Shown piece by piece: positions 5,751 through 55,153 of a DNA stretch of 64,000 bases (positions are counted from its first letter, which is position 1; each line of letters begins with the position of its first letter). Both the position numbers and the translations under genes were made by a program. The DNA comes from Thermoplasmata archaeon (GTDB taxonomy: Archaea > Thermoplasmatota > Thermoplasmata > Lutacidiplasmatales > UBA184), in assembly GCA_021823345.1 (NCBI GenBank), contig JAKAOF010000003.1:23545-87544 (forward strand), written 5' to 3'. The notes under the pieces are model-generated. The model had not been told where the DNA came from and did no database searches. It worked only from the letters and a program-made list of their open reading frames with translations.

Positions 5751-6748
5751 GCGTCCGCCCGGCCTCTCCCGTCGATTCCGGAGCCCCGAAATCGTTCAAG
5801 GCACGGGTCGAGGCGCTCCTCGCCGTGGCCCGCGTTCTCCGCACCGGGGTTCCGCTCCCGGAGTTCCTCTCGTTGCTCCCGGCGGGAGGCCCGCAAAACG
5901 TTGCGGAAATGCTCGCTTGGTTCGAAGCCCATCCCCAGAGCGGTTGGGTGCGGGAAGGATACGTCTTCCCCTACGGAATGGATGTGGACCCCGCGGTACT
6001 TCATCGCGCGAGAAAGGAGAGCGCAGAGCGGATCGAGGTCGCCCGGGACATCCTTTCCCGGGACCTCCGGTCGATGGGTCGGCTGCTCCGGTACGTGGCC
6101 GTCACCGGGTCGACCGCCTTCGGGTCCGCACAGCCTGAGGACGATCTGGATTTCTTCGTGGTCACCCGGAAGGGGACCCTGTGGACCTTTCTCCTGGTGA
6201 CCTACATCCTGGGCCGGCTCCGGAGCCGGAAGGGCATCCAGCTCTGCCTCAACTATGTGCTCGATGAGCGATCGGCGTCCCGAGAATTCCTCTCGACCCA
6301 GCACATCATTTTTGCCCGAGAAGCGCTGGTGATGAAGCCGGTCTTCGGCCGGGAGTACGGGGCCCGTCTCTTGGCGCAGGCCCCGTGGATCCATGAAATG
6401 TTCCCGCGGATCGAACGGCTCCACGGGTCGTCGTCCGCTCCCTCGACCGAACGTTCACCGCTGTTCCCCGTCCTGACCGGAGTTGGCATCTTCCCGTTCC
6501 TCGCCACCTACCTCGTGTTGCTGGGACTGTATCGGAGCGGACGATACTCGAAGAGCGGGCAGTTCGAGTCGGCCTTCCGAACGGACTTCGGCTGGCGACG
6601 GTTGAGCTACAAGAGCGAGAAGTACGATCATCTGCTCGCCTTGTACGGAGGATTCGCAGACAGAAACGCTGCGGAGGCGTCCGAATCCACAGTCCCTGGC
6701 CCGGGGTCCGAAAGTGTTCGACCATCAAATCCGGGCAAAGCTGATTAG
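5747..6748 (+). CDS. nucleotidyltransferase-fold domain protein
   Basis: VAVTGSTAFGSAQPEDDLDFFVV matches the G[ST]x9-13DxD polymerase-beta-type NTase motif. The ATG overlaps the kae1 stop (ATGA). There are no kinase (Bud32) motifs. Confidence 0.5.
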   Translation: MSVRPASPVDSGAPKSFKARVEALLAVARVLRTGVPLPEFLSLLPAGGPQNVAEMLAWFEAHPQSGWVREGYVFPYGMDVDPAVLHRARKESAERIEVARDILSRDLRSMGRLLRYVAVTGSTAFGSAQPEDDLDFFVVTRKGTLWTFLLVTYILGRLRSRKGIQLCLNYVLDERSASREFLSTQHIIFAREALVMKPVFGREYGARLLAQAPWIHEMFPRIERLHGSSSAPSTERSPLFPVLTGVGIFPFLATYLVLLGLYRSGRYSKSGQFESAFRTDFGWRRLSYKSEKYDHLLALYGGFADRNAAEASESTVPGPGSESVRPSNPGKAD

Positions 6749-6773
6749 GCCCGTGTCCCATCCTATTTTTACG

Positions 6774-9700
6774 ATGCGATGGCCAGGGTTGACGGTACTC
6801 GTGATCGTCATGGGGTTGGTCGTCACCAACGTGCCTTCCCCGCAGTTCACGGGAGCGGGAACTTCGATCGTTCAGGTCCACGGTGATGAACGATACCTCG
6901 GCACGTCCCCCGCCCTCGTGGGCGCCATGGTTGCGCAGAACCTGACGTGGAATGCCACGACCGCCCGCCCGGCCCCCCTTCCGATCGCCGGGCGCTGTGG
7001 TCGAGGATTGAGCGCCGGGGCGGCTCTGGGCGGCGATCTCATGGTCTTCGTTGCGAACTACACGGGACCCGCCGGATCGTGTACCTCGACGAGCTTCACC
7101 AACGACACGCTCCTTTACAACGAGTCGAACAACACCTGGTGGAGCCTGGCGAGCAAGGTGCAGCCCCCGCCTGTGGCGAACTTCTCGCTTTCGGTCGACC
7201 CCACGTTCGCCGGTGGGGTCGCCATCCTATTCGACGGGGAAAATCCCGTCTCGCACGTGCCCTACAATGGAACTTGGCTCTTTTACTTCAGCAACGAGAC
7301 CTGGCGCCACATCGATCCGGCCGGGGGCCCGTCGGCCCGAGTGTCCGCCGCCGTAGGATTGGACCCGATGACCCATGATCTCCTGGTGTTCGGAGGCATC
7401 AACATCACGGCGCGGGGGTACGACGACGACTGGTGGAGCCTGAACCTTTCGACCAACGCTTGGAGCTACATCGGGGTCGCCCCGGCCCTCGTCGCCGGAG
7501 GTTATGGGGTGTACGGTGCCTCCGTGATTTCGGAGTCCCCGGGCCACCTTCTCGTGTTCGGGGGATGCAGTTCCATCTCCCTTTACACGACCGGGTGCTC
7601 GAACCAGACCGCGACCCTCTACGCCGAAGCGGGGGGAGGCTGGGGGTATGCCCTCAACGCCACGTCGGGCCCGACCGCCCGAGCGTTCTCCGGATGGGCG
7701 TGGGACCCTGCCCAGGGGGTGGCGCTGCTCTTTGGGGGAGAGACGCTCCAGACCACGGTGCCCGGGTTCCTCAATGACACATGGATCTACCATCCCACCA
7801 CGGACCGGTGGATCCGTCAGGCCGTCCCCCCCTGGGCCCCGTCGCCCCGATTCCGCGTGCCGCTCGAATGGCTGAGCTCCCCCACGAACGAGACGGCCGT
7901 TCTCGTCGGGGGGGTAGGCGGAGCGGCGCTCCCCGGAAAGCAGTTGTGGCGACTCTCTCCATCGTCCTCCGCGTTCGTCACCGTGACCAACCAGTCGGGA
8001 GGAGATTTGGCGGGTGCCCGCGTGGACATCGATGCGGGGGGAGGGAGTTGGCAGCGCGTGACCAATGTGACGGGCGTTGCGGAGTTTGTGCACGTGCCCT
8101 CGGGGATCTTGCGGGCGATCGCCAACGCGTCGGGATACTACCAGAACCAGACGGTCCGCTCCGTGCTCCCCAATTCGACCGCTGCGTTCACGATGGTTCT
8201 CGTCCCGCTACCGGTACTGCGGGTCCGGACCTTCACGCAAAGTGCGAACGGACGGATACCACTGGGTGCCGTGGCGCTCCTATGGGATTCCGGGACCGTG
8301 CCAGCGGCCAACACGGATGCCCGCGGATACTACAACTTCACCGCCGGTCATGGAGGGAAGGTGACCATCACCGGTGAAAAGAAGGGCTACGAGACCCAGT
8401 CCAACAACACCACGCTCCCCGTGGTGGGCGTGGCCTACCTCAATCTCACCCTGCCCGTGATCCAGCCGGCGAACCTTACCGTAGAGGTTCGGAACCCACA
8501 GAAGGCCCCTATCGATAAAGTGACCGTCGACGCCGTCAACATCTCCCAGGGGCTCTCCCTGGTCAACACGACGAACACGGCGGGATACGCGAACTTCTCC
8601 AACCTCCCGGGATACATCTGGGTGAGCCTCACGGCGATCCCCACCTCGGGCTACTACAGCAACTCCACGAACGTGGCCCTCAGCGCCGGGAACCGTACGT
8701 GGGTCAATATCACCCTTCAGCCGTGGCCCGAGCTTCACGTCCACGTCCTCGGCACGGTCGACGGGGGCCCGAAGAACGTTGCCGTCAATTCCGCCGCGGT
8801 GTACCGGAACCTCACCTTCCTCGGGGCGACCAAGACCACCGGTTGGTACAATCTCACCTCTTCGCCCGGGCCCGCGAACATCTCCGCGACGGCCACGGGC
8901 TTTTACTCGGGTTACCGAAACGTGGTGCTCAACCGGACGGGCGTGACGAACGTCACCATCGTCCTGACCGCATGGCCGTCGCTTCACGTGCGGGTGTTCG
9001 GCAACCAAACGGCCGGCTTCCCCATCGCACTCGCCGGTGTGGCGGTCGCTAACAATCTGAGCGGCCCCATCGGGGCCACGGGTCCGCTCGGATGGCTCAA
9101 TGTGACGGTGACCCAGGGTCCGGAGCACGTATCGGTCAGCAAGCTGGATTACCACCCGCAGTCCCGGAACGTGGTCCTCAATCGCACGGGCATCCTCAAC
9201 GTGACCTTCTACCTCGCCCCGTTCCTTGCCAACATCTCCGTCCACGTCCTCACCACCTTGGGAGCCAACTACATCAACGGGACCACGCTGCGGGGTCTCG
9301 GAGGCGCCCAGGTCAACATCACGGCCACGACCGGCCGGGTGCTCGTCAACCTCACGAACTTCATCGGGTACCTCAACACAACGATCGTGGAAGGGAACTA
9401 TTCCTTCTCGGCCTGGGAGTTCGGCTACAAGCACGCCCCTTCCCAGGGTCCGTTGTACGCGAACGCGAGCAAGACCACGACCCTCACCTTCGTCCTTTAC
9501 CCCGTCCCGGGCGCCAACGTGAACGTCCTCATCCACGACCGCAACACCACGGCCCCCATCCACAACGCGACGGTGGAGGTCGGCCTGTATCACCAGGGGC
9601 TCACGAACATCGCGGGATGGGCCAATTTCACCGACGTGCTCCCTCCGGCGCGTTACACGATCTTCGCCGTGGCCGCCGGCTATCGCGCGAACGAGACGAA

Positions 9701-9917
9701 CGTGACCCTGACCTACTACCAGGTGATCCCGCGGCTCCTGATGAACCTCACCAAGTTGACGCCGCCGCCGTCCCACGGGACGAGCGGGAACAACAGTTGG
9801 TCGCTCGTCCCCCCGCAGGAACAGTACACCTGGTGGCCGTTCCTCCTCCTCCCGCTGGTCTTTGCCATCGGGGCGTTCGTGGTCATCGTGAGCCAGCGCT
9901 CAGGCCGTCGTAGCTGA
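6774..9917 (+). CDS. large cell-surface glycoprotein: N-terminal signal/TM, beta-propeller-like region, repeated CarboxypepD_reg-like beta-sandwich domains, C-terminal TM anchor
   Basis: N-terminal hydrophobic LTVLVIVMGLVV. Very high NxS/T sequon density (NLTWNATT, NYTGP, NDTLLYNESNNTWW and others). Repeated modules such as VTVTNQSGGDLAGARVDIDAGGGSWQRVTNVTGVAEF. C-terminal WWPFLLLPLVFAIGAFVVIVSQRSGRRS. Confidence 0.7.
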   Translation: MRWPGLTVLVIVMGLVVTNVPSPQFTGAGTSIVQVHGDERYLGTSPALVGAMVAQNLTWNATTARPAPLPIAGRCGRGLSAGAALGGDLMVFVANYTGPAGSCTSTSFTNDTLLYNESNNTWWSLASKVQPPPVANFSLSVDPTFAGGVAILFDGENPVSHVPYNGTWLFYFSNETWRHIDPAGGPSARVSAAVGLDPMTHDLLVFGGINITARGYDDDWWSLNLSTNAWSYIGVAPALVAGGYGVYGASVISESPGHLLVFGGCSSISLYTTGCSNQTATLYAEAGGGWGYALNATSGPTARAFSGWAWDPAQGVALLFGGETLQTTVPGFLNDTWIYHPTTDRWIRQAVPPWAPSPRFRVPLEWLSSPTNETAVLVGGVGGAALPGKQLWRLSPSSSAFVTVTNQSGGDLAGARVDIDAGGGSWQRVTNVTGVAEFVHVPSGILRAIANASGYYQNQTVRSVLPNSTAAFTMVLVPLPVLRVRTFTQSANGRIPLGAVALLWDSGTVPAANTDARGYYNFTAGHGGKVTITGEKKGYETQSNNTTLPVVGVAYLNLTLPVIQPANLTVEVRNPQKAPIDKVTVDAVNISQGLSLVNTTNTAGYANFSNLPGYIWVSLTAIPTSGYYSNSTNVALSAGNRTWVNITLQPWPELHVHVLGTVDGGPKNVAVNSAAVYRNLTFLGATKTTGWYNLTSSPGPANISATATGFYSGYRNVVLNRTGVTNVTIVLTAWPSLHVRVFGNQTAGFPIALAGVAVANNLSGPIGATGPLGWLNVTVTQGPEHVSVSKLDYHPQSRNVVLNRTGILNVTFYLAPFLANISVHVLTTLGANYINGTTLRGLGGAQVNITATTGRVLVNLTNFIGYLNTTIVEGNYSFSAWEFGYKHAPSQGPLYANASKTTTLTFVLYPVPGANVNVLIHDRNTTAPIHNATVEVGLYHQGLTNIAGWANFTDVLPPARYTIFAVAAGYRANETNVTLTYYQVIPRLLMNLTKLTPPPSHGTSGNNSWSLVPPQEQYTWWPFLLLPLVFAIGAFVVIVSQRSGRRS

Positions 9918-32603: not shown

Positions 32604-33842
32604 ATGGGGGTCATGAAGAGTCTCAAGGAGAGCGTGTGGCCCACGGGAAAGAAGAACCTCGGTTCTCCGGTCTATGTCGAGGAGGACGGCCCCATCCTGG
32701 GGATCGTGGACGATGTCTTCGTGGACCGTTCCTCGGGCAAACCCCTCGCCTACAAGATCCTCGCCTCGGGCCAATACTTGGAACTTCCGGCCGAAGCGGT
32801 CTCGGAAACCCCCGGAGGCTACATCTACCGTTCGCCGTGGTTCGCCGAGGCGGATGCCCTCCTCCGGAAGCTCGAGGGACAGAACCTCGTCATGCCCGAG
32901 CTTTTCTTCTCGACCCCCGCGACGGCGAGCTCGGACCGCCGGCTGCTCGAGTCCGCCATGCAACGCTCCCCCGCCCTCAAGAAGCTGGTGGATGAGGCGA
33001 AGGACCTCCACAAGGATCTCCTGCCGCGGCTTGAATCGATGGAGCAGGAGAAGGCCCGCCTCGTCGGACAGATCGCGGACCTTACCGAAGGGATGGCGAG
33101 CGGACGGATCGACAAGGAATCCTATCGCGAGGGATTCGTCGCCCTGAAACGCCGGCTCCAAGTTCTTGACGCCTCCGTGCGGCGGGGAGAATCCCTGCGT
33201 TCCCGCCTCGAAGGGGTTCCCTTCGTCCGGCTTTCCTTGAACGGCCATGCGAGCCATGCTCGGGAGCCCACCAACGGGCACACCCCGGCATTCACCGGTA
33301 CGCCCGTGGCGCCCGGCGCCCGCCCCGAGGAATGGCGGCGGGTGAAGAAGCTCCGGGTTCTGCGGTCCGAAAAGGAGATCCGCGAGAAGGAAGAGCACCT
33401 GGCCAAGATGGAGAAGGAGCTTGAGCACTTCGGACTTCCGCTGGACCAAGCGGTCCAGGCCCTGGCCTCGGACTTTGCCACCCTTTCGGAAGCGAGCGAG
33501 CGCGGCCCCGAAGCCCTCAAGGCAGAGCTTCGCCGCCGGCTCGAGGTGGTCCGACCCTCGCCTGCGCCCAGCGCTGCCGCGAAGTCTAGCAAGTCCCTTC
33601 CCGACCTTCCCTCTGAAAATCCGAAAGCCACCTGCGCGTTCTGCGGTGAGCCCTTGAAGGGCGGGGAGCCCACGTGTCCCGCCTGCCACGCGGATCTCGC
33701 CCATGTGGAACGGGCGAAGGAAGGCGCGGGAGCGCCCTCCAAGACGGATGTCTTCTTCAAGGGAGGTGGGGCCACCAAGACCGGGGTCGTCCTCCTCGTC
33801 ATCGGGGCCGCACTGTTCCTGCTCAGTCACTTTTTGCACTGA
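32604..33842 (+). CDS. tail-anchored PRC-barrel protein with long coiled coil and C-terminal zinc ribbon + TM anchor (CdvA/CdpB-like architecture)
   Basis: N-terminus GKKNLGSPVYVEEDGPILGIVDDVFVDRSSGKPLAYKI (PRC-barrel-like). Residues ~130-330 are heptad-rich and charged. CAFCGEPLKGGEPTCPACH zinc ribbon. C-terminal TGVVLLVIGAALFLLSHFLH. Confidence 0.6.
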   Translation: MGVMKSLKESVWPTGKKNLGSPVYVEEDGPILGIVDDVFVDRSSGKPLAYKILASGQYLELPAEAVSETPGGYIYRSPWFAEADALLRKLEGQNLVMPELFFSTPATASSDRRLLESAMQRSPALKKLVDEAKDLHKDLLPRLESMEQEKARLVGQIADLTEGMASGRIDKESYREGFVALKRRLQVLDASVRRGESLRSRLEGVPFVRLSLNGHASHAREPTNGHTPAFTGTPVAPGARPEEWRRVKKLRVLRSEKEIREKEEHLAKMEKELEHFGLPLDQAVQALASDFATLSEASERGPEALKAELRRRLEVVRPSPAPSAAAKSSKSLPDLPSENPKATCAFCGEPLKGGEPTCPACHADLAHVERAKEGAGAPSKTDVFFKGGGATKTGVVLLVIGAALFLLSHFLH

Positions 33843-33880: not shown

Positions 33881-35701
33881 ATGGTGGACCCCGAACCGCC
33901 CCAACCCGCCCCCCGCAAAGCCCCATCCAACGAATCCAATTCCACGCTCGACGATATCGCGAGCGACCTCGACTCTATCCTACGCAAGACGGACCAGCAG
34001 ATCGCGAACGGTGCCGCGGAGCAGCCTCCGGCCCTGAAGGAAACGGACTCGGTGCTCGACGAGATCCTCGGCGAGGAGAAGTTCGTCGGGGACGAGTCCC
34101 TTTGCCCGGCGTGCGGTGCGGTGACGAACGTCTATTCGGACCGCTGCGACAATTGCGGGGCCCTCTTCGATGACACCAGTTGCCGGTGCGGTCACTGTGG
34201 GGCGGAGGTTCCCAAGGAGGCGCTCTTCTGCACGGCCTGCAACATGCCCCTCACCGAGAGCGAAGCGCTCTGTCCGGTCTGTTCCACGGCGGTGCCCTAC
34301 CGGGCGGCCAGCTGTCCCTCCTGCGGCTCGGAACTGGCGGAAGGGGATGTCCGATGCGCCAGCTGTGGGAACATCGTGGAACCCAATGCCGTCGCATGTA
34401 CGGCCTGCGGTACCCTGCTCATCGAGGGGGCGAAGACCAAGTCCGAAGCGGTTGCCCAGATGATCAGTCCCCCTTCAGGGACCATCGTGGCGACGGCCGT
34501 CCCGGTCAAGGCGGTCCTCGAGGGAGGAGGAGGGGTCTCCGAGGTGGCGGTCGATAACCGCATCGAGAACAAGCTCACGGTCGAGGCCGTCCTGAAGCCG
34601 GCCCCGGAGCCCGAGGGCCCGCGAAAGCCCAAGGGGGGGAACCTGGTAGACAAGGCGCGGGAGCGGCGCAAGGAATCGCTGTTCCCCTTTACCGCCGTCA
34701 TCGGACAGGAAAAGATGAAGCTCGCCCTCATCCTGAACGTGGTCGATCCCCTCGTCGGCGGGGTGCTCATCACCGGGCAGAAGGGGACGGGCAAGTCGGT
34801 GACCGTCCGGGGTCTCGCTGAGATCACCCCCGAGATCCGGGTCATTGACGGTTGCCGTTTCTCATGCGATCCGGACAAGCAGAGCTACTGGTGCTGGGAG
34901 TGTCACGAGAAGTACGACCAGACCGCGCCCGAATCCTTGCCGGTGAAGAGCCGCCCGCTCCGGGTCGTCGACCTTCCCCTCAATGCGACCGAAGACCGGG
35001 TCGTGGGTACCCTCGACGTGAGCAAGGTCCTCACCGAAGGGGTCTTCCAGTTCGAGTCCGGGGTGCTGGCGGAAGCGAACCGCGGTGTCCTCTACGTGGA
35101 TGAGATCAACCTCCTCGATGACTACGTGGTGGATGTCCTGCTCGACGCGGCCGCCATGGGAGTCGTCACGGTGGAGCGCGAAGGAGTCTCAGTCCGCTAT
35201 CCGGCCCGGTTCGTGATGGTCGGAAGCATGAACCCCGAAGAGGGAGGATTGCGTCCCCAGTTGCTCGACCGGATCGCCCTGGAGGTGTCGGTGACCGGCA
35301 TCGAGGCCCTCGACAAGCGGATGGAAGTGGTCCAGCGCCGCATGGACTTCGAGAGCGATCCCCTCACGTTCCGGGGTCGCTTCGACATGGAACAGCAGTC
35401 GGTGCGCGAGAAGATCCGCCTTGCCCGGGAGATCCTTCCTCGGGTGAAGATCCCCCCCAAGCTCTTTGCGTCGATCCCCAAGGTGACCACCGCGTTCGGA
35501 GTCGATGGGCACCGGGCGGACATTATGATCGAGCGGGGAGCGGCGGCGCTCGCGGCCTACGAGGGCCGGACCGCGGTCGATGCGGAGGACATCTTCCGGG
35601 TGGCCGACATGGTGCTGCCCCACCGTATGCGTCGCAAGCCGTTCGAGCAAAACGAGTTCTCGAGCGACCGGCTCAAGCGGCTCATCGCGGACACCCTTTG
35701 A
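33881..35701 (+). CDS. ChlI/BchI-family AAA+ ATPase with N-terminal multi-zinc-ribbon domain
   Basis: Eight CxxC pairs (CPACGA, CDNCGA, CRCGHCGA, CTACNM, CPVCST, CPSCGS, CASCGN, CTACGT). Then FTAVIGQEKMKLALILNVVDPLVGGVLITGQKGTGKS, GVLYVDEINLLDDYVVDVLLDAAAMGVVTVEREGVSVRYPARFVMVGSMNPEEGGLRPQLLDRI and AAYEGR...LPHR. This is near-canonical ChlI with a Cys-rich insert CRFSCDPDKQSYWCWECH. Confidence 0.8.
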   Translation: MVDPEPPQPAPRKAPSNESNSTLDDIASDLDSILRKTDQQIANGAAEQPPALKETDSVLDEILGEEKFVGDESLCPACGAVTNVYSDRCDNCGALFDDTSCRCGHCGAEVPKEALFCTACNMPLTESEALCPVCSTAVPYRAASCPSCGSELAEGDVRCASCGNIVEPNAVACTACGTLLIEGAKTKSEAVAQMISPPSGTIVATAVPVKAVLEGGGGVSEVAVDNRIENKLTVEAVLKPAPEPEGPRKPKGGNLVDKARERRKESLFPFTAVIGQEKMKLALILNVVDPLVGGVLITGQKGTGKSVTVRGLAEITPEIRVIDGCRFSCDPDKQSYWCWECHEKYDQTAPESLPVKSRPLRVVDLPLNATEDRVVGTLDVSKVLTEGVFQFESGVLAEANRGVLYVDEINLLDDYVVDVLLDAAAMGVVTVEREGVSVRYPARFVMVGSMNPEEGGLRPQLLDRIALEVSVTGIEALDKRMEVVQRRMDFESDPLTFRGRFDMEQQSVREKIRLAREILPRVKIPPKLFASIPKVTTAFGVDGHRADIMIERGAAALAAYEGRTAVDAEDIFRVADMVLPHRMRRKPFEQNEFSSDRLKRLIADTL

Positions 35702-35789
35702 GTCCGGGAAGGCCGAGGCGCCAGGAATCGGGCTCGGAACCCGCCACCGTTAATATCACCGCGTGGTTATCTCAGGGAAGGAGTGGTGA

Positions 35790-37559
35790 TTGACGGTGGC
35801 AAATCCGCAGGACAACTCGAATGAACTGGACGCCGAGATGGCGTTCATCCAGAAGAAGATCAACGAGGGCGTCTCCCGGAAGCAGAAGGAGCTCGACGAT
35901 CAGCATCGCCGGGAAGTCGAGGAACTGCACCGGGGCCATGAAGCTCGGCTGGCCGAGAAGGAACGGGACCACCGTGCCGCCATCGATGCGGCCGACCGGA
36001 ACCATCGCGCCGAGATCGAGAAGCAGGACCGGGACCAGCGCGCGGTCCTAGAGGCGACCGAGCGCAAGCACCATGCCGAGCTGGAGAAGCAGGTCCGGGA
36101 GATGCAGGAGAAGCACGCCGCGGCCCTGGAGGAACGCAGCGAGAAGCTTTCGAGCGAGTTCGCCGTGGAGTTCTCCCAGCAGGAGCAGTCCCTTCGGGCC
36201 AAGTTTGCCGAAGAACGCAAAGCCCTGCAGGAGGACATGCAGCGCCGGGCGGATGCTGATCTCGCCCGCGACAAGCGGGACCTCGAGGAGACCTACCAAT
36301 CCAAGGCGCGAAAGCGAGAGGAAGAGCTCAAGGAACGCTTCGACACCGACCTCAAGAACCGGGAAGCGGAGACCCGCCGGGCGCTCGAGCTCGACTACCG
36401 ACAGAAGCTCACGGAATCCCAGACCAAGCTGGAAGAGGACCTCCGGAACCGTTCGAAGGACCTCCAGCAGGCGGCTGAGAAGGCGGCCCAGCAGAAGATC
36501 GACCTCGAACGGGCCCGGATCGAGAACGAGAATGCCCGCAAGCTCGACACCGAGGTCAGCCGGGTCGAGCATGAACATCGGCAGAAGCTCGCTGAGGCCG
36601 AGGGGTCGCTGAAGGAGAAGTACACGAGCTCCCTGGAGACCGAGCGGCACAAGATCGAGGAAGAGTTCCGCTCGCGGCTCCTGAAGCGGGGCCGGTACGC
36701 CCGGCTCTCGCACTCGCTCAAGCGGCCGCTCTACCCGTTCCCGGCGTTCGTGGGCCTGGAAAAGGCGAAGCGCGCCCTCCTCCTGAACGCGATCAATCCC
36801 AACGTCAACGGTGTCGTGCTCTGGGGTCGGCAGGGGAACGGCAAGTTCTCCATGCTGCTTTCCTTCGCCGAGATGCTGAACTCGATGGACCGCGAGCTGG
36901 TCGGTCGCCCCGAGGATTTCCGACCGTGGAACGACGAGGAACGCTACCTCACGGGAAGGGTCCACTTCGGCAAGGAGATGGCGGTCTATCTGGTCGACAC
37001 GTACCTCCAGTGCGCTACCCTTTCCCTGCCGCCGTCCCACAAGCGAACGGAAGGGCAGGGAGGGGGGGAGATGCCCCAGATGCTCCTGTCGAACCTGAAG
37101 GACGAGGACGAGCACGCATACCACCTCCTCAACGGGTTCACGCTGCATGTCGAAGTGGCGAGCCCGAACACGGTGGAGGAGCGCCTCGAGATCATGCACC
37201 GGAACGCCGAGTTCCGCAAGGAGCCGGCCGCTTTCCGGGAGAAGTACCGTCACACGGTCGAGGAGATCCTCGCGAACGTGCAGGGCGCCCGGGAGAAGGT
37301 CGGGTCCGTGGCGATCTCGACGAAGATCCTCGCCTTGGTGGCACGGATGACGATCCTGGACAAGCAGAGCTCCCGGCTGGATGTGCTCATGGAGCAGCTG
37401 GCCCGGACCAATGCCGCGTTCGAGGGTCGCTCCGAGGTCGACCCGACCGATGTGATGGAAGCGGCGGACCTGGCGTTGATGCACCGCCTTACCCCCCGAG
37501 AGATCGCTGATCTGGAGCGTTCCCTTCCGCACGAGAACGCGCCTCCGCGCCCGAAGTGA
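35790..37559 (+). CDS. ChlI-like AAA+ paralog with degenerate Walker motifs and ~300-aa N-terminal 11-residue-repeat (hendecad) charged helical domain
   Basis: The C-terminal half aligns with ChlI (FPAFVGLEKAKRALLLNAINPNVNGVVLWGRQGNGKF and AAFEGRSEVDPTDVMEAADLALMHR). Walker A is GRQGNGKF (the S/T is lost). Walker B is YLVDTY (the Glu is lost). The N-terminal half is E/R/K/Q-rich with RxHRAEIEKQD-type 11-mers. Confidence 0.7.
   Translation: MTVANPQDNSNELDAEMAFIQKKINEGVSRKQKELDDQHRREVEELHRGHEARLAEKERDHRAAIDAADRNHRAEIEKQDRDQRAVLEATERKHHAELEKQVREMQEKHAAALEERSEKLSSEFAVEFSQQEQSLRAKFAEERKALQEDMQRRADADLARDKRDLEETYQSKARKREEELKERFDTDLKNREAETRRALELDYRQKLTESQTKLEEDLRNRSKDLQQAAEKAAQQKIDLERARIENENARKLDTEVSRVEHEHRQKLAEAEGSLKEKYTSSLETERHKIEEEFRSRLLKRGRYARLSHSLKRPLYPFPAFVGLEKAKRALLLNAINPNVNGVVLWGRQGNGKFSMLLSFAEMLNSMDRELVGRPEDFRPWNDEERYLTGRVHFGKEMAVYLVDTYLQCATLSLPPSHKRTEGQGGGEMPQMLLSNLKDEDEHAYHLLNGFTLHVEVASPNTVEERLEIMHRNAEFRKEPAAFREKYRHTVEEILANVQGAREKVGSVAISTKILALVARMTILDKQSSRLDVLMEQLARTNAAFEGRSEVDPTDVMEAADLALMHRLTPREIADLERSLPHENAPPRPK
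35898..36705 (+). repeat. imperfect 33-bp tandem repeats (coding) giving ~25-28 consecutive 11-residue repeats
   Basis: The DNA period is visible at 35898-36130 (gatcagcatcgccgggaagtcgaggaactgcac / cggggccatgaagctcggctggccgagaaggaa / cgggaccaccgtgccgccatcgatgcggccgac / cggaaccatcgcgccgagatcgagaagcaggac ...). It continues more degenerately to about 36700. Confidence 0.6.
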
Positions 37560-37566
37560 TGTTAGG

Positions 37567-38103
37567 ATGATCCTCTCCGATTCCCGCATCCTCGAGGAGA
37601 TCGAGAAGGGCTCGATCCTCATCCGTCCCTTCCGGCGTGAGTGCCTCGGGTCGAACTCCTATGACGTGCACCTGGGCAACTACCTCGCCACGTACACCGG
37701 GAACGAACTGGACGCCCGGTCGGACAATCCCATCAAGGAGTTCGAGATCCCGACCGGAGGGTTCATCCTCCATCCCCACCAGCTCTACCTCGGAGTCACG
37801 GAGGAATACACGGAGACCCACCGGCACGTGCCGTTCCTGGAAGGGAAGTCCAGCGTGGGCCGCCTGGGGATCGACATCCATTCGACCGCGGGAAAGGGCG
37901 ACGTCGGATACTCCAACTACTGGACGCTCGAGATGTCCTCGAAGATCCCCGTTCGGATCTATCCGGGAATGCCGATCGGGCAGCTCATCTACTTCGAGGT
38001 CGAGGGCGAGATCTTGAAGGACTACTCGAAGAAGGCTTCCGCCAAGTACGCCCAGGTCAACGCGCACCCGGTGCCCTCCCGGATGTACCTCAATTTCAAG
38101 TGA
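37567..38103 (+). CDS. dcd: dCTP deaminase
   Basis: MILSDSRILEEIEKGSILIRPF...SYDVHLG...GKSSVGRLGIDIH...PIGQLIYFEV, the Dcd family signature. 178 aa. Confidence 0.9.
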   Translation: MILSDSRILEEIEKGSILIRPFRRECLGSNSYDVHLGNYLATYTGNELDARSDNPIKEFEIPTGGFILHPHQLYLGVTEEYTETHRHVPFLEGKSSVGRLGIDIHSTAGKGDVGYSNYWTLEMSSKIPVRIYPGMPIGQLIYFEVEGEILKDYSKKASAKYAQVNAHPVPSRMYLNFK

Positions 38104-51931: not shown

Positions 51932-52791
51932 CGGGCCGGCCCCCGCCGGGCCAGGACAAGATGGAAAGGAAGTGCCTTCGCCGAATGGGTGATGTATCCG
52001 ACCGAGGCGAGATCCGCGCCCGAACGGGCATACGCCTCCACGTTATCGATCCCGATCGAGCCGGTGGCCTCCAGTTCCACCTTCGCCCGTACACCCGCCC
52101 GGATAAGGTGTTGATGGATGCCGGCCACCTGGGAGGGGGAGAGATTGTCCAGCAGGAGGCGGGGGACGCCGGCCCGGGCGGCCTCGAGCGCTTCGTTCCG
52201 GTCGTGCACCTCGACCATGAGAGGTATCCGGTGGGCCCGGGCATAGCGAAGCGCCGACTCGAGACTCGGCTCGAAACCGACCAGTCGCTGATGATTTCCC
52301 TTGACGAGAACCGCATCCGAAAGGTCGCGCCGGTGCGGCTCGCCTCCGCCGTGGGTGACAGCGGACTTTTCTAGGTCGCGGAGTCCGGGCAACGTCTTCC
52401 GGGTGGCGGCCACGCGGAAGCGGGGGTTGGCGCGCCGTGCGCGCACGACCACGGAATGCGTCGCGGTCGCCACCCCGGAGAGGTGCATGACGAGGTTGAC
52501 CAGGGTCCGCTCGACGGCCAGGACCTTCCGGGCTGGACCCGTCAGGGTCAGCACGAGGGTTCCCGGGGAGACCCGGTCTCCATCCCGGGCGTGAAGCCGG
52601 ACCGTGAGGCCCACCGAGCGGGCGAGCGCTCGCGCGACGGCGACCCCGCTGAGGATACCCGTCCCCTGCGCGACCAGTCGGGCGGACGCACCCATTCGGA
52701 TCGGGATGCTCGCGAGGGAGGTCACATCCTTTGCGAAGTGGTCCTCTCGAAGGAACGCTTCGAGCCCGCGCCCGGGTTCGCTACTTCCCAT
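51928..52791 (-). CDS. nadC: nicotinate-nucleotide pyrophosphorylase (quinolinate phosphoribosyltransferase)
   Basis: QPRTase-like (TRKTLPGLR...AVTHGGGEPHRRDLSDAVLVKGNH...LLDNLS). 287 aa. Confidence 0.85.
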   Translation of the reverse strand: MGSSEPGRGLEAFLREDHFAKDVTSLASIPIRMGASARLVAQGTGILSGVAVARALARSVGLTVRLHARDGDRVSPGTLVLTLTGPARKVLAVERTLVNLVMHLSGVATATHSVVVRARRANPRFRVAATRKTLPGLRDLEKSAVTHGGGEPHRRDLSDAVLVKGNHQRLVGFEPSLESALRYARAHRIPLMVEVHDRNEALEAARAGVPRLLLDNLSPSQVAGIHQHLIRAGVRAKVELEATGSIGIDNVEAYARSGADLASVGYITHSAKALPFHLVLARRGPAR

Positions 52792-55153
52792 CGCGGACCG
52801 CCTTCCGGAACCGTTCGATGTCGCTCTTCAAGTCCGGACGCAGCTCCTCGAAACGATGGGCTTCGATCTCCTCTAACCGCTTGAGGGCCCCTTCCCGGTC
52901 CCCCTTCAGCAAGTAGAGCTCGCCCTGTCGGAACAGGACCTCCATCTGATCCGGTTCGAAGCCGACATCCTTGGCCAGCCGGAAGGCCTCCAAGACCTCG
53001 AGCTCCCCTTTGGCAAATTCGGCCCTCTGGCCGTGCAGCCGACCCTGGACCAGATGGACCTGGATGAGCCCGAGCTTGTCCCCGACCCGGGTGAGTTGAT
53101 CGCGTGCCTGTTGGTTCAGGTCCTGCGCCCGCTCCGAGTCCCCGACGGATACCAGCACATCGGCAAGATTGAAGAGTGCCCACCCCGTAAGTCGCGCATC
53201 GTGGGCCGACTGCGCCTCGTGGAGCGCCTCTTCGAGATATCGCAGGGCGTCCCCCATGAGCCCGCGCTCCGTGAACCAAAGCCCGAAGTTCATGAGGGCG
53301 GTCGCAAGCAGGGCAGGGTTCTCAAGGTCCCGTAGCACCGAGATCGCCTCGAGGTAGGTGGAGGAGATGCTCTCCTCGTCGGTCGCATCGAGCACCCGCT
53401 TCTTGTCGGCCAGCATGAGACGGGCGATCGCGGCATCGGCCTTCATCCCGGCCTGGGTGAGGAAGGGGATGGCCTGACCATAGTGCTCGGCGGCCTGGGC
53501 GAACTGCCCCCGATAGGTGGCAATGCTGCCCATCATCCGATGGGCCATGCCGATGATCGCCGGGTCCTGCCCCCCCCGGTTCGTGGAGAGCGTGCTCTGC
53601 ACCACTTCCTCGGCCTCCTTCCAACGTCCGGCATGCATGAGGAGCCGGCCGTAGTAGAGGGTGATCAGCCCGGGCGCCAGATTCGACTTGAGGAGCGCCA
53701 GGCCGCGTTCCACTTCCCCGATGACATCGAGGGAAAGCGCCAGATCGATGAGCATGGCCTCCTCCGCCTTCCGGTCCTTCGTGGGCAGTTCCCGCAACGC
53801 CTGCAGGGCCTGTTCGAGGTAGTGCACCTGGGCATCCCCATCTCGAGACTTCTTGGCGAGGTCCGCCGCGAGCCGATTGTACTGAAGGGACTTGTTGGGG
53901 TTCCGAGCGGCGTGATAATGATTGGCGAGCTCGAAGGCCACGAGGGGATTGCTGCCCTCCAAGGCCTCGGTCGCGGCGGCGATCTTCCCATGCAGGATCC
54001 GGCGATGTCGCTCGGTGAGGTAATTGAAGGACTCCATCCAGAGATCGTCGCTCGCAAACTCGTAGACCTCGGTGGAGCGCTCCTTGAGGACCCCCTTCTG
54101 GATGAAGGCATCCACGAGCTCGGTCAGCTTCTCCTCGTCACCGCCGATGGAGTGGTAGAGGGTGTGGAACTTGAACGTACGGCCCGCCACGGTCGCGTAG
54201 GCGAGCACCTTGCGCTCGGATGCATTGAGACCGGTCAGCACGGACTCGGTCCGCGCCTGGGCCGGGGTCTCTCCCGAGCGGGCGACCGGCACGCCCCCGA
54301 TGCGCGCGAGTTGCTCGAGGATGAGGGGGTTGCCGCCCGAGACGGCATACCACTCCCGGACGGTCGCTTCGGTCGGACGAAGTCCCCGGCGGGTGTGCGA
54401 GAGGAACTCCTTGGTCTCGACCTCGGTAAGATTGCGCACCGTCAGTTTTCGGACGAGCCCTTCTCGGCTCATCGTGTTGATCGCGGAGGAAAGCCGCTCG
54501 GGGACCTCCTCCTCCGGGCGAGAAGTGGCGAGGATCTTGATGTTCCGTCCCTTGGCCCGCCGGGCGTAGTACTCCAAGAACTCGATGGAAGCCCGGTCGG
54601 CGTAGTGCAGGTCGTCCAGCAGGAGCAGGAACTTCTTGTCCCCAGCGGCTTCCTCCAGGTGGTCCGCCAGTCGGTCGAAGAGGGCCATCTGCTCCTCTTC
54701 CTCATCGGTCTCCCGTCCCGAGAGCGTGGCAAGCAGACGGGACTCCCGCTCCTCGGGAGACTCCGCCGAGAGGCCCAGCGGAAGGAGGAGCATGGGAATG
54801 GACTTGCGGTCCCGGGCATAGGCTCCGACCAATCCCACCGATGCAGGGGTACCGGTCGTCGAAGGCGCCACGACGTCCCCCGCGGTAATGTCCATGAGCG
54901 AGTGAAGGACCCGTTGGAGGAGGTAGAAAGGCTGCGGGATCTCCGAGGCCTGGGTTTGACCGGAGAGGACGAAGAGGCCGTTGCCCCGAGCCTCCTGCCC
55001 CACGTGACGAAGGAGGTAGGACTTGCCCACCCCCTCTCCCCCCAGCAGGAGCATCACCGGGGGTCCCCCGAGGATGGGAGCGTAGAGGAACCGGCGGAGT
55101 TCCTCCACCTGCTCGGTTCTTCCGATCACTCCAGGGTGCTGTCTCGCAGACAT
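52781..55153 (-). CDS. STAND-like P-loop NTPase fused to C-terminal TPR repeats (MalT-N-terminal-like, no HTH)
   Basis: LLLGGEGVGKSYLL (Walker A), LLLLDDLHYAD (Walker B), then about 400 aa of TPR-like helical repeats (ALRYLEEALHEAQSAHDARLTGWALFNLADVL...). Confidence 0.65.
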   Translation of the reverse strand: MSARQHPGVIGRTEQVEELRRFLYAPILGGPPVMLLLGGEGVGKSYLLRHVGQEARGNGLFVLSGQTQASEIPQPFYLLQRVLHSLMDITAGDVVAPSTTGTPASVGLVGAYARDRKSIPMLLLPLGLSAESPEERESRLLATLSGRETDEEEEQMALFDRLADHLEEAAGDKKFLLLLDDLHYADRASIEFLEYYARRAKGRNIKILATSRPEEEVPERLSSAINTMSREGLVRKLTVRNLTEVETKEFLSHTRRGLRPTEATVREWYAVSGGNPLILEQLARIGGVPVARSGETPAQARTESVLTGLNASERKVLAYATVAGRTFKFHTLYHSIGGDEEKLTELVDAFIQKGVLKERSTEVYEFASDDLWMESFNYLTERHRRILHGKIAAATEALEGSNPLVAFELANHYHAARNPNKSLQYNRLAADLAKKSRDGDAQVHYLEQALQALRELPTKDRKAEEAMLIDLALSLDVIGEVERGLALLKSNLAPGLITLYYGRLLMHAGRWKEAEEVVQSTLSTNRGGQDPAIIGMAHRMMGSIATYRGQFAQAAEHYGQAIPFLTQAGMKADAAIARLMLADKKRVLDATDEESISSTYLEAISVLRDLENPALLATALMNFGLWFTERGLMGDALRYLEEALHEAQSAHDARLTGWALFNLADVLVSVGDSERAQDLNQQARDQLTRVGDKLGLIQVHLVQGRLHGQRAEFAKGELEVLEAFRLAKDVGFEPDQMEVLFRQGELYLLKGDREGALKRLEEIEAHRFEELRPDLKSDIERFRKAVRDGK

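Follow-up and report, generated by a model that had tools for sequence, protein, structure and literature searches.

A charged, non-heptad stalk, probably a right-handed coiled coil, on a degenerate ChlI/BchD-like AAA+ protein of Thermoplasmata

An undistorted alpha-helix has 3.6 residues per turn, and helices that follow the longer periods of 3.67 or 3.75 residues pack as right-handed coiled coils in solved cases. Among these are the right-handed coiled coil (RHCC) of tetrabrachion, built of 11-residue repeats (hendecads), and the VASP tetramerisation domain and YadA stalk, built of 15-residue repeats (pentadecads); the peripheral stalk of A/V-type ATPases is likewise a right-handed coiled coil of the hendecad/pentadecad kind. 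To our knowledge, long natural pentadecad coiled coils are rare. In BchD and ChlD, which serve Mg-chelatase as inactive AAA+ partners of BchI and ChlI, a degenerate ChlI-type AAA+ domain is encoded beside an intact ChlI-type ATPase. Non-heptad coiled coils and ChlD-type pseudo-ATPases are both already known kinds. Here we describe a gene in which the two appear to be combined. It lies in a 64,000-nucleotide stretch of contig JAKAOF010000003.1 from a Thermoplasmata archaeon (hereafter the window), and its product carries a long, charged, non-heptad N-terminal stalk that is probably a coiled coil, and most likely a right-handed one, on what appears from its sequence to be a pseudo-ATPase.

The stalk gene occupies positions 35790..37559 of the + strand and encodes 589 residues; it was taken from the open reading frame listing, matches P0001 over 100% of its residues and was recovered by gene calling on loci L001 and L002. 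The protein, identical to database protein P0001, consists of a helical N-terminal region of ~290 residues followed by a degenerate ChlI/BchD-like AAA+ module. We found 13 full-length homologues with 43-77% identity, and ~14 clusters at 90% identity carry the architecture of its clade. Domain searches recognised the AAA+ part only, and no Pfam family covers the N-terminal region. PADLOC defence models gave nothing relevant for the stalk, and Foldseek with the full-length AlphaFold2 model, in which long helices are joined to an AAA+ part of low confidence, found no PDB structure at E <= 0.001, returning only spurious histone-fold fragments. The combination of such a stalk with an AAA+ domain is unusual, as a preliminary description of this DNA, made from the letters alone, had remarked. 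That description had drawn attention to positions 35898-36705, which correspond in frame to residues 37-306 of the protein and are periodic, helical and charged. An antisense open reading frame of 524 codons (36048..37622, - strand) overlaps most of the stalk gene; we judged it, like the other long overlapping reading frames here, to be a by-product of the 64% G+C content, and these antisense frames appear to be artefacts, since homologues conserve the + frame.

Autocorrelation of the protein sequence with BLOSUM scores, compared with 1000 residue shuffles (95th percentile of the maximum z over all lags, 3.4), revealed two different periods within this span. Residues 37-113 repeat every 11 residues (z = 5.7 at lag 11 and 7.5 at lag 22). 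Residues 114-306 repeat every 15 (z = 6.3, 6.1, 4.5 and 4.6 at lags 15, 30, 45 and 60) and carry no period-11 signal (z = 0.4 at lag 11), and the C-terminal half of the protein showed no periodicity by the same method. The preliminary description had counted ~25 consecutive hendecads; what we found instead was six to seven hendecads followed by 13 pentadecads, jointly spanning ~270 residues, so that a period of 11 holds for the first part of the span and fails for the remainder. The hendecad zone covers 35898..36095 (+; residues 37-102) and comprises six units in the unit listing, or six to seven if followed to residue 113. The pentadecad zone covers 36099..36683 (+; residues 104-298) and comprises thirteen units, delimited by autocorrelation, Fourier analysis and the alignment profile. 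The periodicity is well above chance, is a property of the protein and is mostly of period 15.

Fourier analysis of hydrophobicity corroborated the pentadecad register. Over residues 114-300 the spectrum peaks at 3.75-3.76 residues with a power of 92-99, compared with a 95% shuffle maximum of ~60, and none of 2000 shuffles reached the power at 3.75 (p < 0.0005). A further peak at 2.14 corresponds to the 15/7 harmonic, and there was nothing at the heptad period of 3.5 (p ~0.28) or at 3.67 (p ~0.67). Hydrophobicity averaged over 13 homologues gave the same stalk peak, at 3.76. The apolar residues fall at positions 2, 6, 10 and 14 of each pentadecad, a 4-4-4-3 spacing equivalent to 3.75 residues per turn. 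In the 13-homologue average these positions have mean Kyte-Doolittle values of +1.7, +2.7, +1.2 and -0.2, the remaining positions lie between -1.3 and -3.4, and the seam is flanked by alternating acidic and basic positions. The preliminary description's view that the repeats are not heptads was thus borne out, and the right-handed coiled coil, one of the structures it had offered, is the one that fits the 3.75-residue turn. We predict a right-handed stalk because 3.67 and 3.75 are both longer periods than the 3.6-residue turn of an undistorted helix.

The hendecads continue the same seam with a different composition. Their consensus is R-x-H-R-A-x-[IL]-E-x-x-[DE], and the true unit is a double unit of 22 residues. 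Each hendecad contributes one I/L/V, and the seam follows a 4-3-4 spacing (3.67 residues per turn) in the order His, then I/L/V, then a variable residue. The hydrophobic seam is unbroken across the hendecad/pentadecad junction. The result is a ladder of histidines on the hendecad seam (residues 39, 50, 61, 72 and 94); histidine makes up 10% of the hendecad zone versus ~2% of the pentadecad stalk. A strain variant of 589 residues, P0170, carries the substitutions H61N and Q83H (35970-35972 and 36036-36038), both at the repeat's histidine position; the hendecad histidine thus switches from unit to unit at constant length.

These features align the stalk with VASP, YadA, tetrabrachion and the A/V-type ATPase peripheral stalk, with which it shares 4-4-4-3 and, less securely, 4-3-4 spacings. 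Like them it lacks a heptad signal, places charges on either side of a narrow seam and is predicted to be long and rod-like, although it has no sequence homology to any of them. It differs in its thirteen uninterrupted pentadecads, its exactly conserved length and its fusion to a putative pseudo-AAA+ module, and its hendecad seam carries the histidine ladder.

AlphaFold2, run with a 14-sequence alignment, predicted two helices spanning residues 9-160 and 170-310 (predicted local distance difference test, pLDDT, ~80), and the excess of opposite- over same-charge i/i+4 pairs in both zones likewise supports a helix. We compared conservation along the stalk in an alignment of 14 Thermoplasmata homologues (alignment A1); within the helical region, conservation is highest in an N-terminal peptide and in a motif inside the stalk. 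The N-terminal motif (35823..35879, +; residues 12-30, ELDAEMAFIQKKINEGVSR) lies at the end of the stalk distal to the AAA+ module and has the consensus ELDAE[ML]AFIQKKIxEGV across homologues; A18 is invariant, and F19, Q21, K22, K23 and G27 are at least 90% conserved. It is probably a docking peptide. The intra-stalk motif (36261..36299, +; residues 158-170, LARDKRDLEETYQ) shows the strongest conservation within the stalk, with L158, A159, R160, D161, D164, L165, E166, T168 and Q170 each at least 90% conserved. It is a candidate hinge, hairpin tip or binding site, judging from conservation and the predicted model. The 15-residue register runs uninterrupted through it.

Length comparison in the same alignment separated the two zones. 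The interval corresponding to residues 103-300 is exactly 197 residues long in 12 of the 14 homologues. Homologues differ, by contrast, in the length of the hendecad zone, which lies between 34 and 125 residues and mostly changes by 11, 22 or 33: measured from the N-terminal motif to the pentadecad stalk, it is 34, 34, 56, 56, 67, 92 and 114 residues in the closer clade and 65, 65, 76, 76, 76 and 125 in the other. P0002, the closest relative at 77% identity, is missing exactly 33 residues, the equivalent of three hendecads. By this comparison the hendecad zone is the indel hot spot of the family. The repeat-number variation anticipated in the preliminary description is therefore real among relatives. 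Within clusters of at least 90% identity we found no length differences once start-codon calls were discounted (five clusters, of 2, 8, 2, 8 and 3 sequences); the apparent differences of 541 versus 555 and 598 versus 612 residues both trace to start-codon calls. Copy number therefore shifts on a species-level time scale and not by ongoing slippage.

Several observations weigh against a right-handed coiled coil. The AlphaFold2 monomer has a predicted template-modelling score (pTM) of 0.21, with the AAA+ part poorly modelled, and is uninformative about packing and handedness. For the hendecads, the Fourier signal at 3.67 falls short of significance on the Kyte-Doolittle scale (p = 0.14) and attains it only with strong hydrophobic residues coded as a binary property, and the seam there carries His, Lys and Gln. 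With ~27% hydrophobic positions and ~49% charged residues, a stable single alpha-helix (SAH) is possible, above all in the hendecads. Such a monomeric, salt-bridge-stabilised spacer of the ER/K type, whether it took in the whole region or the hendecads only, would account for the 48-49% charged residues, for the excess of opposite- over same-charge i/i+4 pairs (19:2 in the hendecad zone, 40:7 in the pentadecad zone), for the roughly one strong hydrophobic residue per 11 in the hendecads and for the freely varying length of that zone. SAH domains lack an in-register hydrophobic seam, whereas the pentadecads conserve one, with four positions per 15 kept over 13 homologues at the significance given above, and the stalk there is of exactly conserved length. 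A single alpha-helix is less likely for the pentadecads than for the hendecads because of this conserved seam, and taken as a whole, with the hendecads as its main ground, we consider it unlikely though not negligibly so. The helix break in the AlphaFold2 model could also indicate an intramolecular antiparallel hairpin and not an extended stalk: it is the only break, falls at residues 161-169 on the LARDKRDLEETYQ motif and separates arms of similar length, so that a reversal there would return the N-terminal peptide towards the AAA+ module. Confidence at the break is low (pLDDT ~45), however, as is that of the model overall, and the 15-residue register continues through the supposed turn. Moreover, homologues combine a C-terminal arm of fixed length with an N-terminal arm that differs by up to 91 residues, so a matched hairpin cannot be conserved. 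We think a fold-back quite doubtful, more so than a single helix.

The preliminary description had also drawn another comparison, with the lipid-surface amphipathic 11-mers of apolipoproteins, alpha-synuclein, perilipin and late embryogenesis abundant (LEA) proteins. Like the exchangeable apolipoproteins and alpha-synuclein, residues 37-113 have a genuine 11/22-residue periodicity; the hydrophobic moment of the whole segment at 3.67 (0.28) is near alpha-synuclein's 0.26, a membrane-anchored protein is encoded next door, and the distant hendecad-stalk members P0026, P0032 and P0033 match Pfam Apolipoprotein below threshold. The period of 11 is nevertheless confined to six or seven units of a stalk that is mostly of period 15, and the in-register moment (0.25-0.28) comes from a stripe one residue wide, a much narrower apolar face than in those proteins, with a seam that includes His, Lys and Gln. 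Compared with alpha-synuclein and ApoA-I reference sequences entered by hand, the stalk has fewer strong hydrophobic residues (13-19% vs 27-28%), more charge (48-49% vs 22-35%) and a negative mean hydrophobicity (-0.13/-0.10 vs +0.24/+0.20). Pfam returned no match to residues 1-307 even at E <= 10, and PDB sequences at the same threshold gave one chance match to the stalk. A lipid-surface helix is thus a very improbable description of this stalk. Nor does the DNA behave as the array of 33-bp tandem repeats that had been proposed. A variable-number repeat that changes by slippage, as at a contingency locus, would fit the differences of 11, 22 or 33 residues among species, but Tandem Repeats Finder reported no arrays in positions 35000-38000 (minimum score 30) or in the whole window. 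Against codon shuffles, the DNA of 35898-36128 is 48% identical at a lag of 33 nt (z = 3.7) and 59% at 66 nt (z = 6.6), and the other 577 nt of the span show weak signals at lags of 45 and 90 nt and nothing more. Neighbouring 33-nt units are 27-67% identical; the longest tandem-compatible repeat in a direct-repeat search was 19 nt at 84% identity, 66 nt apart, and that search otherwise gave short, chance-like matches only. The DNA is not slippage-prone because near-identical units are absent, and with lengths identical inside the five clusters we find a contingency locus scarcely credible. Part of the hendecad array arose through an old duplication of the 22-residue double unit; the duplicated 33-nt units retain 73-76% DNA identity. 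A charged, non-heptad and most likely right-handed coiled coil is the reading that we carry forward, with moderate confidence.

The C-terminal module explains the ChlI-like label that the protein had been given, although not as a working ATPase. The AAA+ core and AAA lid (36702..37523, +; residues 305-578; Pfam, NCBIfam and PDB profile searches) are of a degenerate ChlI/BchD type. Pfam finds AAA_lid_2 only (2.6e-9). The NCBIfam models score far below their cutoffs, with 100 bits for BchI (TIGR02030; cutoff 467), 79 bits and 4e-22 for BchD (TIGR02031; cutoff 499.55) and 122 bits for Cob-chelat-sub. PDB profile matches to ChlI 6l8d (4e-32) and BchI 1g8p (1e-31) establish the homology, and pairwise comparison with the neighbouring ChlI-like protein gave 24% identity (E = 4e-22). 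The Walker A motif reads GNGKF, with the lysine retained and Ser/Thr replaced by Phe, and there is no recognisable Walker B. LLNG stands where ChlI has 'LLDR', the arginine being replaced. From the Walker A helix to the post-Walker B helix there are ~31 residues (363-393) compared with ~92 in 6l8d ChlI, and by this alignment the ChlI core between the two helices is largely missing. Together, these data suggest that the module, like BchD/ChlD, is a pseudo-ATPase without catalytic activity and not a working ChlI.

The N-terminal degenerate AAA+ homology region of BchD/ChlD is thus present in the stalk protein, and the degenerate AAA+ protein is again encoded beside an intact ChlI-type ATPase. 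In other respects the proteins differ. The stalk protein has no match to a VWA domain and so no VWA/MIDAS domain, has no proline-rich acidic linker, carries its extra domain at the N-terminus as a predicted coiled coil and scores far below the equivalog cutoffs; no ChlH/CobN-like gene lies in the 64-kb window around it.

The intact ATPase is encoded directly upstream (33881..35701, +; 606 residues; Pfam DZR, Mg_chelatase and AAA_lid_2). It has four N-terminal CxxC...CxxC zinc ribbons, a Walker A GTGKS and a Walker B YVDE, and scores 411 bits against NCBIfam BchI-ChlI and 468 bits against Cob-chelat-sub. Both scores miss the cutoffs for BchI and cobaltochelatase, and the protein is therefore not a genuine chelatase subunit. 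A Cys-rich insert (CRFSCDPDKQSYWCWEC) lies within its AAA+ core. At every locus long enough to be informative (L001-L008, L014 and L015), this ChlI-like gene immediately precedes the stalk gene.

A third gene (32604..33842, +) precedes this pair and encodes a 412-residue protein for which we found no significant Pfam match. AlphaFold2 predicted an N-terminal beta-barrel, then a confident helical hairpin and further helices, and the C-terminus carries one zinc ribbon and a transmembrane helix. Foldseek matched the model to Sulfolobus islandicus CdvA (9s9i/9s9g) at E = 1.7e-6 to 5e-5 over ~185 columns, with a target-normalised TM-score of 0.5-0.63; the next matches were PRC-barrel proteins and CdpB1/CdpB2. 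Weak Pfam PRC matches occur in 13 of 14 members of this CdvA-like family, and Pfam CdvA matches in 2 of 14. Searches with a family hidden Markov model showed that the gene adjoins the ChlI-like pair in all eight close loci (8/8), co-directional or divergent depending on the locus, and detected a homologue in the distant locus L015 (E = 6e-18), one of the two informative distant loci.

This arrangement recalls the Cdv system of Sulfolobales (CdvA, the ESCRT-III protein CdvB and the Vps4 protein CdvC), in that a CdvA-like protein is here too genomically coupled to an AAA+ machine, and the 412-residue protein shares with CdvA an N-terminal PRC barrel and a helical hairpin. The ATPase at the stalk locus is of the ChlI type and not Vps4, however, and the +/-10 kb around the stalk gene contain neither an ESCRT-III nor a Vps4 gene. 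Where CdvA has its ESCRT-III-binding peptide, the 412-residue protein has the zinc ribbon and transmembrane anchor. A 2024 ESCRT survey and a 2023 PRC-barrel paper mention no chelatase-type partner.

The two distant loci carry further genes. A VWA protein is encoded directly downstream of the stalk gene (L014 7767-9011, L015 7926-9023), and a CarboxypepD_reg-like protein of ~800 residues upstream of the ChlI-like gene (L014 795-3194, L015 1292-3715). A separate downstream VWA gene amounts to a 'split ChlD', and the extra VWA and CarboxypepD_reg-like genes of L014 and L015 suggest an ancestral five-gene module of that kind. In the window itself, positions 6714-9917 (+) encode a 1067-residue protein with a Kelch beta-propeller and CarboxypepD_reg; it shares the latter domain type with the upstream gene of L014 and L015, possibly by coincidence. 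A 790-residue STAND-like protein (52781-55153, -; AAA_16 / NB-ARC with TPR), ~15 kb downstream, is unrelated.

We considered a metal-chelatase operon and rejected it, as the 64-kb window contains no CobN/ChlH-like open reading frame. A chelatase role for the AAA+ proteins is unlikely because the catalytic subunit of a chelatase was not found nearby.

How the parts may work together can be proposed from the foregoing. Residues ~9-310 would make up one very long and highly charged alpha-helical region. Its only hydrophobic seam is narrow and runs through two modules set in line, the length-variable hendecads (residues 37-102) and the length-fixed pentadecads (residues 104-298). The stalk would oligomerise, most likely as parallel dimers or trimers, and its handedness would follow from the periods discussed above. 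It may act as a rigid spacer or ruler; as a straight helix the pentadecads alone would measure ~29 nm and the whole helical region ~40 nm. The N-terminal peptide (residues 12-30) would thereby be held ~30-40 nm from the C-terminal module. That dead module would co-assemble with the intact Zn-ribbon ChlI-like ATPase in a mixed ring, as BchI does with BchD; this pairing is put forward from the BchI/BchD analogy and gene adjacency only, which counts among the points against the overall scheme. The complex would probably act on, or be anchored by, the adjacent membrane-anchored CdvA-like protein, which is thus probably its anchor or its substrate.

The stalk gene and the ChlI-like and CdvA-like genes look like an undescribed three-gene module, whose function can be proposed from these comparisons. 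A bolder proposal is that the three genes encode a membrane-remodelling or cell-division machine of uncultured Thermoplasmata, in which a chelatase-type AAA+ motor takes the place of Vps4, the 197-residue coiled-coil ruler couples that motor to a CdvA-like polymer and the histidine ladder serves as a pH- or metal-sensitive switch; we offer it as speculation that is unlikely to be right.

The plan of the stalk protein extends beyond its own clade. A profile search of 1.84 billion representatives found a wider family, ~20 representatives when clustered at 50% identity, in which a pseudo-ChlI module follows a long charged helical stretch; some of these also have an N-terminal zinc ribbon. The close clade has a significant period of 3.75 (15-mers), as do 5 of the 17 more distant representatives tested; most other distant representatives peak at ~3.6-3.67 (repeats of 11, 18 or 36 residues). 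The heptad period reached significance (p < 0.05) in P0054 only, where it is weak (p = 0.033) and 3.67 is stronger. Some distant members retain a canonical GKT/GKS Walker A. A genome scan recovered two true relatives, both from Thermoplasmata metagenome-assembled genomes, and a scan of metagenome contigs at least two confirmed loci. The hendecad-type stalks of P0026, P0032 and P0033 score up to 47.9 bits against Pfam Apolipoprotein A1/A4/E (cutoff 90), where the stalk protein of the window has no match; the apolipoprotein resemblance is an effect of periodicity elsewhere in the family and does not apply to the protein described here. One source names the homologue P0002 'chemotaxis protein histidine kinase CheA', and P0190/P0195, entries of the CdvA-like protein, are named 'rubrerythrin' by another source. 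Both names are unsupported by the domain analyses and probably wrong.

We found no description in the literature of the stalk protein family or of its gene association. What appear to be undescribed are the combination of coiled coil and pseudo-ATPase, the thirteen pentadecads of exactly conserved length, the hendecad histidine ladder and the CdvA-like linkage. Thirteen pentadecads joined in phase to variable hendecads would be a useful natural system for studying the construction and length evolution of non-heptad, right-handed coiled coils. The analysis of the stalk locus also corrects the source annotations 'CheA' and 'rubrerythrin'. For the Thermoplasmata, the stalk marks an uncharacterised family of ChlD-like pseudo-ATPases with a Zn-ribbon ChlI-type ATPase as its constant genomic partner; the chelatase-type AAA+ proteins at this locus probably do not insert metals. 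The CdvA-like link suggests a new system tied to membranes or division, in archaea about whose division machinery little is understood.

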